Source of the DNA: an uncultured Hormoscilla sp.
GTDB taxonomy: Bacteria; Cyanobacteriota; Cyanobacteriia; Cyanobacteriales; Desertifilaceae
Direction of reading: 5' to 3'
Assembly: GCA_963921275.4 (NCBI GenBank)
Contig: OZ001293.3
Location: forward strand, 4,928,001 to 4,992,000
Length of the DNA stretch: 64,000 nt
The notes under the pieces were generated by a model. That model saw only the letters and a list, made by a program, of their open reading frames with translations, did no database searches and was not told the DNA's origin. Shown one piece after another: positions 30,354-38,087 of the stretch. The position numbers were made by a program, and so were the translations under genes. Position 1 is the stretch's first letter, and each line of letters opens with the position of its first letter.

Positions 30354-33300
30354 CTATTCTATGACAGCGGGGAGAACATCGGACTGATTTTTGCCCAAAT
30401 TGCCCAAGGCAAATGCTGCACTCCTACACACATCAGAATATTCATCCTTTAGCAGCTGAATTAGGCCCGAGACCACCTGTTCATCCCTGGCGCCCGATTT
30501 GCCCAAGGCTTCTGCTGCACGATTACACACCAAAGAATCTTCATCCTTTAGCAGCTGAACCAGGGCCGAGACCATTTTTTCATCCCTGGCGCCCAATTTG
30601 CCCAAGGCTTCTGCTGCACTCAAACGCACATAATACTCTTCATGCTTTAGCAGCTGAACCAGGCCCGAGACCACCTTTTTATCCCTGGCGCCCAATTTGA
30701 CCAAGGAATCTGCTGCATTATCACGCACATGATAATATTCATCCTTTAGCAGCTGAACCAGGGCCCAGACCACCTTTTCATTCTTGGCGCCCAATTTGCC
30801 CAAGGCTTCTGCTGCACTCAAACGCACATAATACTCTTCATGCTTTAGCAGCTGAACCAGGGCCGAGACCACCTTTTCATCCCTGGCGCCCAATTTGCCC
30901 AAGGCTTCTGCTGCACTCAAACGCACCCAAGAATCTTTATTCTTTAGCCACTGTTCATCCCTGGCGCCCCTGGCGTCTAATTTGCCCAAGGCTTCTGCTG
31001 CACTCCCACGCACAGAATAATCTTCATCCTTTAGCAGCTGAACCAGGGCCGAGACCACCTTTTCATCCCTGGCGCCCGATTTGCCCAAGGCTTCTGCTGC
31101 ACACAGAAAAAAATCATCCTCTAGCAGCTGAACCAGGGCCGAGACCACCTTTTCATCACTGGCGCCCAATTTGCCCAAGGCTTCTGCTGCACTCAAACGC
31201 ACATAATACTCTTCATGCTTTAGCAGCTGAACCAGGGCCGAGACCACCTTTTCATCACTGGCGCCCAATTCGACCAAGGCAAATGCTGCACGATTACACA
31301 CCAAAGAATCTTCATCTTCTAGCAGCTGAACCAGGACCGAGACCACCTTTTTATTCCTGGCGCCCGATTTGCCCAAGGTTTCTGCTGCACTCTCACGCAC
31401 AGAATAATCTTCATCCTTTAGCAGCTGAACCAGGGCCGAGACCACCTTTTCATCCCTGGCGCCCAAATTGATCAAGGCATCTGCTGCACTCCCACGCACA
31501 TGATAATATTCATCCTTTAGCAGCTGAACCAGGGCCGAGACCACCTTTTCATCCCTGGCGCCCAATTTGCCCAAGACTTTTGCTGCACTCCCACGCACCC
31601 AAGAATCTTCATCCTTTAGCAGCTGAACCAGGGCCGAGACCACCTTTTCATCCCTGGCGCCCAAATTGATCAAGGCTTTTGCTGCACTCTCACCCACCGG
31701 AGGATATTCATCCTTTAGCAGCTGAACCAGGGCCGAGACCACCTTTTCATCCCTGGCGCCCAATTTGATCAAGGCTTTTGCTGCACTCTCACGCACCGGA
31801 GGATATTCATCCTTTAGCAGCTGAACCAGGGCCGAGACCACCTTTTCATCCCTGGCGCCCAATTTGCCCAAGACTTTTGCTGCACTCTCACGGACAGAAT
31901 AATCTTCATACTTTAGCAGCTGAACCAGGGCCGAGACCACCTTTTCATCCCTGGCGCCCAAATTGATCAAGGCTTTTGCTGCACTCTCACGCACAAAATA
32001 ATTTTCATACTTTAGCATCTGAACCAGGGCCAAGACCACCTTTTCATCCCTGGCGCCCAAATTGACCAAGGCTTTTGCTGCACTCTCACGCACCCGAGGA
32101 TATTCATCCTTTAGCAGCTGAACCAGGGCCGAGACCACCTTTTCATCCCTAGCGCCCAAATTGACCAAGGCTTTTGCTGCACTCTCACGCACCCGAGGAT
32201 ATTCATCCTTTAGCAGCTGAACCAGGCCCGAGACCACCTTTTCATCCCTGGCGCCCAAATTGCCCAAGGCTTTTGCTGCACTCAAACGCACAGAAGAATC
32301 TTCATCCTTTAGCAGCTGAACCAGGGCCGAGACCACTTTTTCATCCCTGGCGCCCAATTCGACCAAGACTTTTGCTGCACTCCCACGCACCAAAGAATCT
32401 TCATCCTTTAGCAGCTGAACCAGGGCCGAGACCACCTTTTCATCCCTGGCGCCCAATTCGACCAAGACTTTTGCTGCACTCCCACGCACCAAAGAATCTT
32501 CATCCTTTAGCAGCTGAACCAGGGCCGAGACCATCTTTTCATCCCTGGCGCCCAATTCGACCAAGACTTTTGCTGCACTCTCACGCACAGAATAATCTTC
32601 ATCCTTTAGCAGCTGAACCAGGGCCAAGACCACCTGTTCATCCCTGGCGCCCAATTCGACCAAGACTTTTGCTGCTCTCAAACGCACCCAAGAATCCAAA
32701 AGAGATTCATCCCAAAAATTTTTATCCTTTAGCAGCTGAACCAGGGCCGAGACCACCTGTTCATTCCTGGCGCCCAAATTGACCAAGGCTTCTGCTGCAC
32801 TCAAACGCACAGAAGAATCTTCATCCTTTAGCAGCTGAACCAGAGCCGAGACCACCTGTTCATCCCTGGCGCCCAAATTGACCAAGGCTTCTGCTGCACT
32901 CAAACGCACAGAAGAATCTTCATCCTTTAGCAGCTGAACCAGAGCCGAGACCACCTGTTCATCCCTGGCGCCCAAATTGACCAAGGCTTGTGCTGCACTC
33001 CCACGCACCAAAGAATCTTCATCCTTTAGCAGCTGAACCAGGGCCGAGACCACCTGTTCATCTCTGGCGCCCGATTTGCCCAAGGCTTCTGCTGCACTCC
33101 CACGCACCAAAGAATCTTCATCCTTTAGCAGCTGAACCAGGGCCGAGACCACCTTTTCATCCCTGGCGCCCAATTCGACCAAGGCTTCTGCTGCACTCAA
33201 ACGCACCCAAGAATCTTTATCCTTTAGCAGCTGAACCAGGGCCGAGACCACCTGTTCATCCCTGGCGCCCAATTTGCCCAAGGCTTGTGCTGCACTCCCA

Positions 33301-33449
33301 CGCACCAAAGAATCTTCATCCTTTAGCAGCTGAACCAGGGCCGAGACCTCCTTTTCATCCCTGGCGCCCAAATTGACCAAAGCTTTTACTGCTTCTTCTA
33401 AGGCTACCTGATATTTCCGCGATTTACTTTCGTCAATGTCTTGGGTCAT
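30354..33449 (-). CDS. HEAT (PBS-lyase/alphaRep-like) repeat protein, ~32 x 31-aa repeats; C-cap probably truncated
   Basis: 93-bp repeats encoding VR.SAA.AL..LGARDEKVVSALVQLLKDE. Confidence 0.9.
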   Translation of the reverse strand: MTQDIDESKSRKYQVALEEAVKALVNLGARDEKEVSALVQLLKDEDSLVRGSAAQALGKLGARDEQVVSALVQLLKDKDSWVRLSAAEALVELGARDEKVVSALVQLLKDEDSLVRGSAAEALGKSGARDEQVVSALVQLLKDEDSLVRGSAAQALVNLGARDEQVVSALVQLLKDEDSSVRLSAAEALVNLGARDEQVVSALVQLLKDEDSSVRLSAAEALVNLGARNEQVVSALVQLLKDKNFWDESLLDSWVRLRAAKVLVELGARDEQVVLALVQLLKDEDYSVRESAAKVLVELGARDEKMVSALVQLLKDEDSLVRGSAAKVLVELGARDEKVVSALVQLLKDEDSLVRGSAAKVLVELGARDEKVVSALVQLLKDEDSSVRLSAAKALGNLGARDEKVVSGLVQLLKDEYPRVRESAAKALVNLGARDEKVVSALVQLLKDEYPRVRESAAKALVNLGARDEKVVLALVQMLKYENYFVRESAAKALINLGARDEKVVSALVQLLKYEDYSVRESAAKVLGKLGARDEKVVSALVQLLKDEYPPVRESAAKALIKLGARDEKVVSALVQLLKDEYPPVGESAAKALINLGARDEKVVSALVQLLKDEDSWVRGSAAKVLGKLGARDEKVVSALVQLLKDEYYHVRGSAADALINLGARDEKVVSALVQLLKDEDYSVRESAAETLGKSGARNKKVVSVLVQLLEDEDSLVCNRAAFALVELGASDEKVVSALVQLLKHEEYYVRLSAAEALGKLGASDEKVVSALVQLLEDDFFLCAAEALGKSGARDEKVVSALVQLLKDEDYSVRGSAAEALGKLDARGARDEQWLKNKDSWVRLSAAEALGKLGARDEKVVSALVQLLKHEEYYVRLSAAEALGKLGAKNEKVVWALVQLLKDEYYHVRDNAADSLVKLGARDKKVVSGLVQLLKHEEYYVRLSAAEALGKLGARDEKMVSALVQLLKDEDSLVCNRAAEALGKSGARDEQVVSGLIQLLKDEYSDVCRSAAFALGNLGKNQSDVLPAVIE

Positions 33450-33849: not shown

Positions 33850-34596
33850 TTAAAACCAGCCTTCCAGTTCTAACTCTTCAATTAATTGTAGGGCACGCGG
33901 ATCGCCCACTTTCAGCAGGGCGGCCTTAGCGTCTTCCCGGACACCTAGATCTTCATCTTCGGCAAAAGACTCAATCAAAGCATCGATCGCCCCAGCATAG
34001 ACTACATTAGAAGGGAGTTCGCGGCAGAGTTCGCCCAAAGACCAAGCGCAGTTACTGCGGACAGCGGGTATGGAGTCTGTGCGCAAAGCTGTAATCAAAG
34101 GGGGAACAGCCTTGACTAATTCAGCATAACCCACTTCTGCCATCTGCGCCAGAGCACTAGCAGCCCAGAGACGCACCGCAGAGATATCAGTTGACAAAGC
34201 ATCCACCAGGGGTGGCAAAGCACGGAGGTCGCGACAGTTACCCAGGGCCCAAACCACCCCCTTGCGCACGTAACCATTCCAATCATTTTGCAGCTGAAGA
34301 ATCAAAGGAGTAACCGCATCGGGGCTGGGGTTGCGACCCAAAGCATAAGCAGCGCTAACACGCACCAAGGGACAGACATCGGCCAACAGCCCGATCAGGA
34401 GAGGAATAGCCCGCCCATCCTGAATTTCACAAAAAGCTCGGGCCGCCAACATCCGCTGCTGGGTTTCTGGTGCTGCCAGGAGAGCCAGCATCTCCTCTGG
34501 ATCCGGTAGGGGTTCCTCTTCAACCGGTTCCATGCGATCCAGAGGACTCTCCAGCTCTGTCTGGCCGTCTAGTAGGAATAGGTCATCATCGTTCAT
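33850..34596 (-). CDS. Conserved cyanobacterial HEAT/PBS-lyase repeat protein
   Basis: VRVSAAYALGR, GYVRKGVVWALG and VRSNCAWSLG motifs. Confidence 0.85.
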   Translation of the reverse strand: MNDDDLFLLDGQTELESPLDRMEPVEEEPLPDPEEMLALLAAPETQQRMLAARAFCEIQDGRAIPLLIGLLADVCPLVRVSAAYALGRNPSPDAVTPLILQLQNDWNGYVRKGVVWALGNCRDLRALPPLVDALSTDISAVRLWAASALAQMAEVGYAELVKAVPPLITALRTDSIPAVRSNCAWSLGELCRELPSNVVYAGAIDALIESFAEDEDLGVREDAKAALLKVGDPRALQLIEELELEGWF

Positions 34597-35039
34597 GATC
34601 GCAGTTTAGCAGACTATTGAGCAGAGTCGTTCGCGTAGCGTGCGCGCAGCGCACTCGCGATCGCCATCTTGCCCGTAACCGATCAATGCTGTCAAACCTC
34701 CTTTCTGGTAGGGTGAGCACCGCCCACCGGGGACTTTCTGGTTGCTAGGACCTGCCTGGTAACCCAAACCAGAGGCTCCTGCCTTAAATAGGGTATGACT
34801 TGATGAGGATATGTTCTCGTCAGCTGTCGAGAGTTTCCACCAGGGTCTGTCAAAGGGCGATCGCGAAAACAATTCAATAGTTTTTGACAATATTTGGCTA
34901 TTATAATAGTCATAATAGCCGCAGCTATATTTACAAGCTCAATTATACATAATTGAGCTGCTACTTACTGCGGTTGTATTTATTTTCATCTGACTATATC
35001 TGTTGCAATCAAGCCAGTATTGCTTTCATCTTTCCTGGC

Positions 35040-36025
35040 TCAATGAAATTGAGCATACCTACTAATTCCCCAAAGATTCTGTCCGATCTACCCGACGGGA
35101 TAATTGGCACTAATGCCCCGATCGCCTACCGCTCTAGCATTTCAATAAATCACCGCGACAGTAAACACTCTTTGGTCGGGACTTACAGGGTTTCATTTGT
35201 AGCATACATTTTTCTAAATGGTAATATACGGTGCAAACTTTCCCTAAGCTTGCTGTTGCTGGCCAGTGGGTTCTTCGATCTCGATCCAACTGGAACACTT
35301 GCACTAATGCCCCGATCGCTTTTGGAGAATCATTCCCTATTTTTCCTAAACTTTCTGCTACTTGCCGGCGCGTCTCTCCATTTCTACTATTCTCTAGCAC
35401 TTACACCAATGCCTCGATCGCTTCTGAATCACTATTCCCTATTTTCCCTAAACTTTTTGCTACTTGCCGGCGCGTCTCTTCTACTATTCTCTAGCACTTT
35501 CACTAATGCCCCGATCGTCGATACCGTGCAAATTTTCCCTAAGCTTTCTGCTGCTTCCCTGTCAGTTGATTCTGATTGATAATACTGTAGCGTAGTTTGA
35601 CCAGCAGCAATTTTCCCAATCAAAGCAATTCCCTTTTCCTTTATTTTCCCTTGCCCTTGGGCTATAATTTGACTCAATAAAGCTTCCTTCTCAAGCCGCT
35701 GCTTCTGCACCATTTCGTCGCGTTTAGTGCCCTGTTCGAGAGAAATATCTCCCTCCATTTTATCGATTTTTTGCTCTGACACCAGCCCTAGGGGAACATC
35801 AATCGGTTGTCGCTCTTTCTTCGCTTTCTCATTATTGTGAAACAGATAATTTCCGGCGATTACCGTATTGAGCATTCCCGCACTAATGTAGCGCCCGGCT
35901 CCCTGTCTTTCGCTCCTCGCATCCTGCCCCGAAACAATAATAGTTTTGCTTTCAATATGAACTTTACTGCCAGGGGCAGCAAAAGCGCCTATTTTCTCAG
36001 CCAACTTACCATATTCTATATTCAT
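35040..36025 (-). pseudogene. Internally deleted NACHT-HEAT (NLR-like) gene
   Basis: IDVPLGLV pre-NACHT segment and a degenerate Walker A (ALIGKIAAGQTTL) joined directly to HEAT repeats (AESLGKIG) in shifted frames. Confidence 0.6.
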
Positions 36026-36304
36026 AGCTAATCATCCCAATTTTCAAAATCTATCTTACAGAGATTACCACATTTTCAACCATCAATAACTTCCGCTCCG
36101 GATCCCTTGACCTAGCGCGATATAATATTAGATCGCGCATGTCAAGCGATCGGGGTGCATCTCATATTGGTAAATAGATAACTCAGGTAACGATATAATA
36201 AGGGTTTCAGCCTTCAAACCTAGTGTTTTTGCAAAGATGCACCCAAGTGATAAATGATACTGCCCTGGGAGGGCGACCTGGTAGACTTTTCAAACAACCT
36301 CTAA

Positions 36305-36745
36305 TTAAAAGCTCTGATGCTCAATTTTACCCGTACTGCCAGCTTGGACAAATTGCCCGATTTTATCGGCAAATTTGCCAAGATTAGACATGGATGGTTG
36401 TCGAAACTTCTGCTCATCTTTAATTTCTTGGAGAACTTCATATAGCATGGAATTTTGGTCAGCTTCTGCTTCTGCTGCTGTTGCCAATTCCTGCATCGCT
36501 TGGGCAACTTGAGGATTTCCCTTTGTTGCTGCTTCTATCTCCTGCATTGCTTTACTATAATCTAAAGGTAGTTCCCTCACCTGTTCAATGGCTATCATAG
36601 TACCTGGAGATTCTTCCTTGAGGGATTCTAGAAACTTTGCCGTCTGGTCAAATACTGCTTCTCCAACTTTTTCTCCTGTTTTTTCCAATGCTTTCGTAGC
36701 TAATACAGATCCAATAACTACAGCCGCCGTTGTTAAAGGTTCCAT
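36305..36745 (-). CDS. Small Bell-like helical protein with a C-terminal low-complexity motif
   Basis: MEPLTTAAVVIGSVLATKALEKTGEKVGE N-terminus; C-terminal motif shared with the downstream gene's N-terminus. Confidence 0.6.
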   Translation of the reverse strand: MEPLTTAAVVIGSVLATKALEKTGEKVGEAVFDQTAKFLESLKEESPGTMIAIEQVRELPLDYSKAMQEIEAATKGNPQVAQAMQELATAAEAEADQNSMLYEVLQEIKDEQKFRQPSMSNLGKFADKIGQFVQAGSTGKIEHQSF

Positions 36746-37322
36746 AATTCACAATCTCCTATCTGATACAGGTATTTAAATATACTCTGGAAGCCATTCG
36801 TGATTATACTTAAATAACCACAAATCAATATCCCGTGAGGGGGGATGGCAATAACCCCTCTTTTTAGCTAATTGCTGATGCAGCAAATTTTTACTAGCTC
36901 CAACAGCATACAGCACTCGCTCATCAATCATATTAAAAACCGTGCTCCCATTCTGCAACGGGGTGTCACCCCTCACTTCAGACAATTGCAGCAATTATTT
37001 TCTCATCTCCAACAGCAGGGAAGTCCAGGATGAGGCTTTCTCTGCCTCTGGTGTCGTTAAAGTTTCCATAATTCACAATCTCCTCTCCTATCTGATACAG
37101 GTATTTCAATCTACTCTGGGATATACTCGTGATTATACTCAATTTACCCCAAATAAATATACTGTGGAGTAATGGTAATAACCCCTCTTTTTAGCTAATT
37201 GCTGATGCAGCAAATTTTTACTAGCTCCAGCAGCATACAGCACTCGCTCATCAATCATATTAAGGAACTGCGCTCCATAGGAGCAACGGGGTGTCACCCC
37301 TCATTTCAGGCAATTGCAGCAA
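36732..37322. repeat. Imperfect ~265-bp direct duplication (36732-36994 / 37056-37322) of the upstream region and first codons of the Bell-like gene
   Basis: Shared CCATAATTCACAATCTCCT...GCAACGGGGTGTCACCCCTCA. Confidence 0.85.
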
Positions 37323-38087
37323 CGGCTTCATAGCTTACTGTGTGGGGGATGGCGTTGTAGGTCGGGCCACTTTTCGGTACATGATCGCACTTTACGCTCT
37401 GCAAGGGTTTTGCTACATTTTGGCCCAATTTCCAGGCAGATCGCAATAGGTAATATTGCCAGAAATCCAGGCAGTGTCAGCTTTTTAACTTTTTTCAGCA
37501 AGCCCTAAATACTATAAATAGGTGGACAAAAATATTTACACATTCGCTCGTTGGCTTAACCGATCAATGGTAGGCGGTGCCCACCCTACAGCCCACAGTG
37601 TAATTAATGGCTGTCCTATTACTTAGCCCGCGCCGGAAGGTTGCCACGCTGCGCACGCTGCGCGAAAAATCGGAATGACATTGCTTTGTTTGTATAGCCC
37701 CAGTCTTTAGGGCGATCGCCACAAAATAAATAAATATTATAGAATATATACATTGCTACTCTAGCTATGTTATCGGCAGTTCGCCGAACAATTGCCGATA
37801 TCTCGCCAGCAGTTCATCGGGAGTAGCATATCGCTGCCCCCGATCGTCTATCGCAATTAGCGAGCTGCCGCAGCACAGACAGAGGGACCACTGGCGATCG
37901 CACATAGCGGCACCCCGTACCATGTCCTTGATGCTTTGATGATGGTAAGCTGATTGGTGCTGTTGAGTACAGTCGCGAACTTATCTTTCCCTTAATCTCA
38001 GAACCAGTGACGGGCAGGCGATCCGCCCGCCCTACGCACCCCGGGCAGGCGATCCGCCCGCCCCACGGACCATTAACCACCGACATA

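Follow-up and report, generated by a model that had tools for sequence, protein, structure and literature searches.

The closest described relatives of the locus considered here are pairs of neighbouring genes in which a NOD-like receptor (NLR) and a small cell-death effector carry the same short motif at their facing termini. The bacterial effector domain concerned, Bell, is defined in Dyrka et al. 2020 (10.1101/2020.01.06.895854) as a short, all-alpha domain of ~100 aa. According to the part of that preprint available to us, the motif families BASS 3-6 occur in both Actinobacteria and Cyanobacteria, and only BASS1 and BASS3 were tested there for prion or fibril formation. Bell and Hell domains share an N-terminal acidic-then-hydrophobic helix, the 'MEPIS'-type region, and one related pair, Bab/Agp, has been experimentally shown to be an abortive-infection system (10.1101/2024.11.07.622273, available excerpts). 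Here we analyze such a pair in a stretch of 64,000 nt from an uncultured Hormoscilla sp. (GCA_963921275.4, contig OZ001293.3, positions 4,928,001 to 4,992,000; hereafter the window). It associates a 146-aa Bell-family effector gene with what appears to be the NACHT-less remnant of a receptor gene. We conclude that this pair is probably the relic of a Bell/BASS5/NLR cell-death module, i.e. a known system in decay, which probably no longer signals.

Both open reading frames (ORFs) of the pair are on the minus strand: the 146-aa ORF (36305-36745), then a 279-nt intergenic spacer (36026-36304), then a 197-aa ORF (35432-36025). The first begins MEPLTTAAVVIGSVLATKAL, ends SNLGKFADKIGQFVQAGSTGKIEHQSF and is closed by a TAA stop, and the start of the second reads MNIEYGKLAEKIGAFAAPGSKVHIESKTIIVS. 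The spacer carries a terminator-like hairpin at 36262-36274; its identity to the corresponding spacer of locus L133, from a Hormoscilla metagenome-assembled genome (MAG), is 80%. Contigs of the runs X1 and X2, which may derive from the source sample, match the window exactly over 34900-36350.

The C-terminus of the 146-aa protein, NLGKFADKIGQFVQAGSTGKIEHQSF (36308-36385), aligns without gaps to the N-terminus of the 197-aa ORF (MNIEYGKLAEKIGAFAAPGSKVHIESKTI), with 11 identical residues out of 26. On the receptor side the motif, EYGKLAEKIGAFAAPGSKVHIESKTI, covers residues 4-29 (35939-36016). The effector copy was assigned from the consensus, the published motif set and the comparison with a paralogue, the receptor copy from the consensus and an alignment of receptor N-termini. 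The strict consensus GK.A[DE]KIG.F...GS...IE has two matches in the six-frame translation of the 7,034,909-bp genome, and both are those of the window pair. Taken alone the pairwise score is weak, and it is not significant genome-wide: when the C-terminal 30 aa of the Bell protein were compared by BLAST with the genome cut into 84,991 stop-to-stop segments, the window partner came 5th (E 3.4) and the partner of the paralogue 3rd (E 0.013). The significance of the match thus comes from its position (extreme C-terminus facing extreme N-terminus), from the adjacency of the two genes and from its recurrence in other genomes.

In an alignment of 13 receptor-side N-termini, that of the window included, all share M...A.KIG, and all 13 have a matching Bell gene directly upstream. 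The 12 other pairs (L013, L015, L016, L018, L020, L021, L024, L027, L030, L063, L075 and L106) have receptors of the NB-ARC type (GMGGVGKTELA) or of the NACHT type. A sequence-only reading of the window had proposed a Bell-type effector beside an NLR-type gene with a common terminal motif, judging from the gapless alignment and from the consensus at both termini, and had suggested looking for the motif at paired positions in adjacent cyanobacterial genes; these proposals hold. It had also considered that the motif might not yet be catalogued, and here it was mistaken. The window motif pair matches cluster C07 (50 sequences) of the published Bell-side BASS set (PMC8086366, accessible part of the supplement). 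The entries of this cluster include ..NLEKLADKIGQVVMPGGTGNIENMSF and MNDNFSKLADKIGAVALPGGTVQVN.., as well as PNPKLAEILAMPNLEKLADKIGQVVMPGGTGNIENMSF, which is letter for letter the C-terminus of the L015 Bell protein (entry C07_s037), MNDNFSKLADKIGAVALPGGTVQVNTQNIDGQK, the N-terminus of the L027 receptor (entry C07_s030), and KSQPSVINKFAKLAEEIKAEKGAMVA..., similar to the Bell tail of L014. Because the order and the sizes of the clusters fit Table 1 of the same article, in which BASS5 counts 50 sequences, we infer that C07 is BASS5.

The receptor-side BASS5 motifs of NB-ARC and NACHT type receptors are closer to each other than to the motif of their own Bell partner, e.g. GKLAEKIGAFAAPGSKVHI in the window vs GKLADKIGAFAAPGSQVNI in L018. 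This likeness suggests that the motif-coding 5' module may have been exchanged between receptor classes.

Homologues of the 146-aa protein are present in 48 of the 401 cyanobacterial genomes sampled. Their sizes are ~125-170 aa and their N-terminus, MEP(L/V)T..., is strongly conserved (MEPLT... in the window). The first two residues are ME or MD in 26 of 31 aligned homologues, and the window protein, with MEPLTTAAVVIGSVLATKAL (36686-36745), fits the pattern of an acidic second or third residue followed by a hydrophobic helix, helix 3-19 of its AlphaFold2 (AF2) model. This model consists of 8 helical segments without any strand (pLDDT 68, pTM 0.62). An all-helical protein of 146 aa agrees with the size expected of Bell proteins, about 120-140 aa including the all-alpha domain of ~100 aa. 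Over its full length the window protein is 63% identical to the L015 protein, whose last 38 residues are the published Bell-side entry C07_s037. Homology to a published Bell protein, the acidic-hydrophobic N-terminal helix and the all-helical model thus indicate that the 146-aa protein is a Bell-family effector, with a predicted killing activity.

General resources recognize this family poorly. Neither the Bell protein nor the 197-aa ORF is covered by any model of Pfam, NCBIfam or PADLOC, and there are 0 consistent families among 31 Bell members. The ESM Atlas returned only cyanobacterial 'hypothetical protein' clusters, one of them with PF20701 in 18% of its members, an assignment that was unconfirmed by Pfam scans. 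Foldseek with the Bell model, which is of only moderate confidence, gave no match at E <=0.001 in the PDB (best E 0.43), and a wide VIA-align search with the same model reached at best Z 5.0, for unrelated helical proteins, with no MLKL, HeLo or Bab match.

Two further observations concern the Bell gene and its family. The Bell domain also exists in rare long forms, namely P0084 (823 aa), P0130 (895 aa) and P0037 (700 aa); two of them are fused to an apparent dynamin-like GTPase (recognized by eye from the P-loop GxxGxGKS and DLPG), and one to a post-NACHT helical part with HEAT repeats, without P-loop. In the window a ~327-bp tandem duplication (36729-37380), immediately upstream of the Bell gene, has doubled its 5' leader together with the first ~6 codons (ATGGAACCTTTAAC.. 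vs ATGGAAACTTTAAC..).

To describe the partner we used as reference the intact receptor of L063 (1096 aa), with Pfam NACHT at 133-289, HEAT repeats and NCC-H. Residues 70-145 of the window partner can be aligned with the pre-NACHT linker and with the P-loop of L063 (..IDVPLGLV.. vs ..IYVPLALV..; window 35591-35818, aligned to L063:1962-5252), and then the alignment skips to the first HEAT repeat. Thus ~460 residues of the NACHT region, between Walker A and the HEAT repeats, are gone. The deletion has its junction immediately 3' of the Walker A site, GIALIGKIAAGQTT (residues 132-145, 35591-35632) vs YIALIGEPGAGKTT in L063. This site is itself mutated: it reads GKIAAGQT vs GEPGAGKT, the lysine is lost and the pattern GxxxxGK[ST] is no longer present. 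The 197-aa ORF and the 88-aa remnant that follows gave no NACHT or NB-ARC match.

The HEAT-repeat remnant (35134-35490) is out of frame with the 197-aa ORF. A HEAT_2 match (E 2.7e-5; 24.8 bits, below the cut-off of 27.7) is found solely in the separate 88-aa frame, i.e. the window copy has no in-frame repeat sensor. Comparison by tblastn with a 305-aa orthologue, P0001, from a Hormoscilla sp. MAG shows that the frame shifts near 35474-35490 and is interrupted by an in-frame stop at 35401-35403. P0001 is truncated in the same way, but its frame stays open through three HEAT repeats, and it has a 23-aa insertion; its Walker A is mutated too. Among 5.8 billion clusters only 1 protein of similar length with a NACHT-less BASS5-HEAT organization was found. 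From these alignments the 197-aa ORF and the frameshifted HEAT segment are best described as the 5' part and the rest of a relic NACHT-HEAT receptor gene. The sequence-only reading had seen in the second gene a pre-NACHT segment, a decayed Walker A and HEAT repeats, and had concluded that the receptor has lost most of its NACHT domain beside an intact effector. The alignment to L063 bears this out, with the HEAT segment continuing in another frame; the frameshift and stop, the differing decay in sister strains and the two paralogous pairs of the same genome, described below, are additions to that reading.

The decay of the pair differs from one strain to the other. The syntenic locus L133, in a Hormoscilla MAG, keeps an intact Bell gene (133 of 146 residues identical) and a 305-aa partner with the 23-aa insertion. 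At L134, the syntenic locus of a second Hormoscilla MAG, the Bell gene and the 5' half of the partner are absent, and only the stretch from ..AGQTT onwards is kept. Between the window and L133 the ratio of nonsynonymous to synonymous differences per site (pN/pS) is 1.27 for partner codons 76-176 (15.5 nonsynonymous, 3.5 synonymous), 0.69 for the Bell gene (13.5 and 5.5) and 0.53 for partner codons 1-74 (4.0 and 2.0). The pre-NACHT linker thus appears to evolve neutrally, as judged from few substitutions. In contigs of the run X5, from a related strain that is ~95% identical, 57 nt are missing inside the Bell gene at 36469-36527, an in-frame loss of 19 codons of the helical domain.

The genome of the window contains two further Bell loci, L013 and L014. 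The L013 pair (G000:C1:5920112-5922048; L013:4113-6049) has a Bell protein 82% identical to that of the window, with the same last 23 residues, and a partner devoid of the NACHT core. At L014 (G000:C1:5966203-5967783; L014:4204-5783) the pre-NACHT segment ..QIYVPLALVKRKK.. is joined straight to HEAT-NCC-H, with a junction unlike that of the window. None of the 9 NACHT and 5 NB-ARC matches of the genome falls at any of the three Bell loci. NACHT loss by internal deletion between P-loop and repeats thus occurred at least twice independently in this genome.

How an intact module would work can be outlined from its relatives. These have a NACHT-HEAT or NB-ARC-TPR receptor with a BASS5 motif of ~25 residues at its N-terminus and, just upstream, a Bell gene whose product ends with the same motif. 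According to the model published for such pairs, which we extend to BASS5, a ligand would drive oligomerization of the nucleotide-binding oligomerization domain (NOD) of the receptor and thereby gather the receptor motifs. These would adopt a self-templating fold and convert the Bell tails, upon which the Bell helical bundle would free its N-terminal hydrophobic helix and damage the membrane. In the window the effector gene is whole and the receptor lacks ~460 codons. Since a receptor without NOD cannot oligomerize in a nucleotide-dependent manner, the input of the switch has most likely been lost, and the pair would be about to disappear from the genome. Observed at the locus are the anatomy, the homology, the lesions and the strain-to-strain differences in decay; that the motif templates amyloid, that Bell kills through the membrane and that the window pair has lost its function is presumed.

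Several observations weigh against this decay, and most of them speak for an alternative in which NACHT-less BASS5-HEAT proteins are working parts, either repeat-only sensors that would seed Bell (cf. the TPR protein Agp for Bab) or caps or decoys that would restrain the Bell tail. The partner of L013 is an uninterrupted 452-aa ORF, starting MNREYGNFADKIGAFAAPGGKVHIENQTIIVS, with a BASS5 motif, an intact GxxGxGKT P-loop and 7 matched HEAT_2 stretches, and the 305-aa orthologue of the Hormoscilla MAG is also in frame. The L013 and window partners share the junction sequence (..QYYQSESTDREAAESLGKI.. vs ..QQYDRWELTSREAAERLGKI..); the deletion is therefore older than the duplication, the truncated form having been duplicated and persisting, and the NACHT-less form is no one-off. 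The motif is retained between these paralogues on both sides (23/23 core residues for Bell, 25/32 for the partner), and the 23 codons of the Bell motif core display 3 synonymous and 0 nonsynonymous changes. The Bell paralogues have a dN/dS of ~0.5, which therefore suggests that some constraint is left on the effector. It must be added that every selection count is based on few substitutions. Finally, in E. coli a BASS-bearing partner without NTPase, Agp, is functional, which gives a precedent for such an organization (10.1101/2024.11.07.622273, in the part available). On the other side, the window copy is frameshifted and interrupted by a stop, both it and P0001 have a mutated Walker A, pN/pS reaches 1.27 in the linker, and one sister strain (L134) is without the Bell gene and the 5' half of the partner; the lesions differ copy by copy, and the 5.8 billion clusters yielded a single protein of this kind at similar length. 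We therefore regard working parts as an unlikely explanation of the window pair, and decay of a known module as the preferred one.

A second alternative bears on the mode of pairing rather than on the state of the genes: the BASS5 motif could be a homotypic adaptor that pairs as a helix or in another non-cross-beta mode. In the AF2 model residues 119-134 (SNLGKFADKIGQFVQA) form a helix, though with low confidence (pLDDT 56-66 for the block). In the accessible part of PMC8086366 BASS5 lies nearest to disordered proteins (DisProt), and the authors remark that it and BASS8 'were apparently not modeled properly'; as far as the available text of 10.1101/2020.01.06.895854 indicates, BASS5 peptides are outside those assayed. 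A low-confidence helix in the first half of the motif and the atypical behaviour of BASS5 thus leave room for non-amyloid pairing. However, according to the same text of 10.1101/2020.01.06.895854 all ten BASS motifs are predicted to have beta propensity and reach ArchCandy scores of the amyloid type, the motif is in its second half (G-S/G-x-x-x-I-x-x-x-x-F/I) G/N/Q-rich and alternating as in other BASS families, and a templated fold is beyond the reach of a monomer AF2 model. We give non-amyloid pairing a small, though appreciable, probability. As for a likeness of the two termini due to chance, the modest genome-wide rank of the pairwise score would be in its favour, but the strict consensus occurs genome-wide only at the two sites of the window, the motif is in the published set, and the pairing recurs in 12 other pairs, among them the paralogous L013. 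This recurrence in other genomes refutes chance, whose probability we consider negligible.

The window pair is then one more BASS5 Bell/NLR module, degenerate, with a motif already known. It also shows clearly in which order such a module dies: the sensor NTPase goes first, and the small effector ORF and both motif copies outlast it. This order of loss may help to interpret further 'orphan' Bell genes. A testable question that follows is whether a repeat-only, motif-bearing remnant could still seed or restrain the effector.

The comparison of Bell loci brought out a junction whose importance outweighs that of the window pair. The 86 Bell-homologue loci examined come from 47 other genomes (29 + 57 loci). 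At 50 of them, in 32 genomes, the Bell-BASS ORF stops at TGA and an ORF of >=100 codons continues directly in the same frame (L019, L023, L025, L029, L031-L033, L035-L038, L040, L041, L043, L065, L068, L070-L074, L077-L085, L088, L089, L091-L095, L097, L099-L105, L108, L110, L115, L116 and L119). Four more loci have the same UGA context with a short continuation. All 50 stops are followed by C, against a background of 79 of 483 for the TGA of long frames in the genome of the window, and the codon after UGA is CTA (32), CTG (13), CCA (4) or CAG (1).

The downstream ORFs lack both a BASS motif and an early start codon of their own; 25 of the 50 contain GMGG[VIL]GKT (of nine sent to Pfam, all have NB-ARC and eight have TPR), 16 contain GEPG[AS]GK[TS] (Pfam NACHT in 6 of 6 sent), and 9 are of other kinds, the five of these sent to Pfam giving one PsbP_2, one CHASE2 and three without match (L035, L041, L043). 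The first in-frame ATG, GTG or TTG is found 5 to 115 codons past UGA, most often at codon 24. It falls inside or beyond the segment ..TPDDWREVCRE.L.ERRKLTTNPLT.., which in separately encoded receptors, e.g. L063, lies within the ORF. Among 7 close relatives pN/pS is 0.25 over codons 12-50 past the stop, and synonymous diversity is lowest beside the stop (0.10 vs 0.38 further on).

A potential hairpin follows the stop. A 5-bp stem begins 8 nt after UGA in 42 of the 50 loci; the alignment omits one duplicate and seven loci with a divergent post-stop sequence, in which no equivalent stem was seen. Pairing in the stem amounts to 98.6% of 210 cells, vs 81.8% in shuffles and <=50.5% when the stem is slid, figures that are flattered by the derivation of the stem from the same related sequences. 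Double-sided changes in this stem, with the same reservation, number 40 vs 11.3 +/- 3.8 in shuffles, and 0 of 500 shuffles reached 40. Folding of single sequences gave hairpin z-scores of -1.5 to +0.3, which are not significant, so that the case for the hairpin is one of covariation. An outer helix, suggested by RNAfold in 3 of 7 sequences, did not fit the consensus and was dropped. Searching five whole genomes with a covariance model gave 11 matches, all at Bell 3' ends (per genome, scores were computed for only 150 of about 1,600-2,200 first-look candidates); one of them is the decayed L014 locus, which is outside the training set of the model. There the Bell gene has a premature TAA 8 codons before the original TGA and the hairpin is still present, i.e. 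L014 is a decayed junction of the UGA type. Rfam, run on 8 UGA-type loci, has no match at the junction.

A UGA followed by C terminates weakly, and in viral and eukaryotic cases readthrough is favoured by UGA-CUA when a structure lies 8 nt downstream. We are somewhat inclined to believe that the usual form of the Bell family is one frame broken by a single UGA and subject to programmed readthrough, the split pair of the window and L014 being two variants of it. Readthrough would yield, from one mRNA, much free effector and little effector-motif-receptor fusion, and would thereby set the ratio of seed to substrate. Termination-reinitiation at a non-canonical codon and a purely regulatory hairpin are rival accounts of the junction; the strict in-frame arrangement favours readthrough over both. 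Selenocysteine insertion was considered and rejected: none of the 5 carrier genomes searched, each 99% complete, gave a SelA match, with a positive E. coli control, which argues against it. Among the best 150 of 470 family clusters (1.84 billion proteins) 5 are long (364-895 aa), and none is a sense-codon Bell-BASS-NB-ARC/NACHT fusion. Our literature search on stop-codon readthrough in cyanobacterial NLR/NACHT genes found no report, and the words readthrough, read-through, stop codon and in-frame are absent from the available text of the Saupe-group preprints 10.1101/2020.01.06.895854 and 10.1101/2024.11.07.622273. If true, cellular bacterial genes would here undergo programmed stop-codon readthrough, and such immune-type gene pairs would have to be annotated and modelled differently.

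Two neighbours of the pair, both on the minus strand, are also made of HEAT repeats. A 1031-aa ORF (30354-33449), 1.7 kb downstream of the receptor remnant, consists almost wholly of ~30 near-identical 31-residue HEAT repeats (HEAT_2, E 3.9e-245), without NTPase domain. Between it and the remnant lies a 248-aa HEAT-repeat gene (33850-34596), which at L133 (3728-4475) is split into frames of 136 and 145 aa; this split is a further sign of widespread gene erosion in the lineage.

Compared with known systems, the window pair is closest to the BASS5 Bell/NLR pairs of cyanobacteria (10.1101/2020.01.06.895854 and PMC8086366, as far as both were accessible). Like them it has a small MEP.. Bell protein with a C-terminal ..KLADKIG....GG.G.I....F motif, and a collinear downstream receptor gene that opens with the same motif. 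Intact examples are L063 (Bell 145 aa and NACHT-HEAT-NCC-H 1096 aa, 17 nt apart) and, for the NB-ARC type, L015, L018, L020, L021, L024 and L027. Unlike these, the window receptor has lost NACHT, its Walker A is mutated and its HEAT segment frameshifted. The spacer is also longer, 279 nt vs <=10 bp in 57% of the collinear pairs of 10.1101/2020.01.06.895854, and the repeats are HEAT, whereas the same preprint, in its accessible part, defined NLRs by TPR or WD repeats.

With HET-s/NWD2 of Podospora anserina the window pair has the logic in common: in the fungal system an NLR adjoins a pore-forming effector, and a short prion-forming motif is common to the facing termini. The HET-s/NWD2 motifs nevertheless have no sequence relation to the window motif, and the effector fold searches gave no HeLo match. 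In the case of Bab/Agp of E. coli ECOR25 (BASS11; 10.1101/2024.11.07.622273, excerpts) the likeness extends to the partner: the effector is Bell-related, helical and ends with a BASS, and Agp, like the window partner, has an N-terminal BASS and a repeat domain without STAND NTPase. The two systems differ by the motif family, by the domains of Agp (TPR-GreA/B-C-PIN) and by the shorter Babybell (~80 aa). Agp has a dedicated architecture, whereas the window partner is visibly a truncated NACHT gene.

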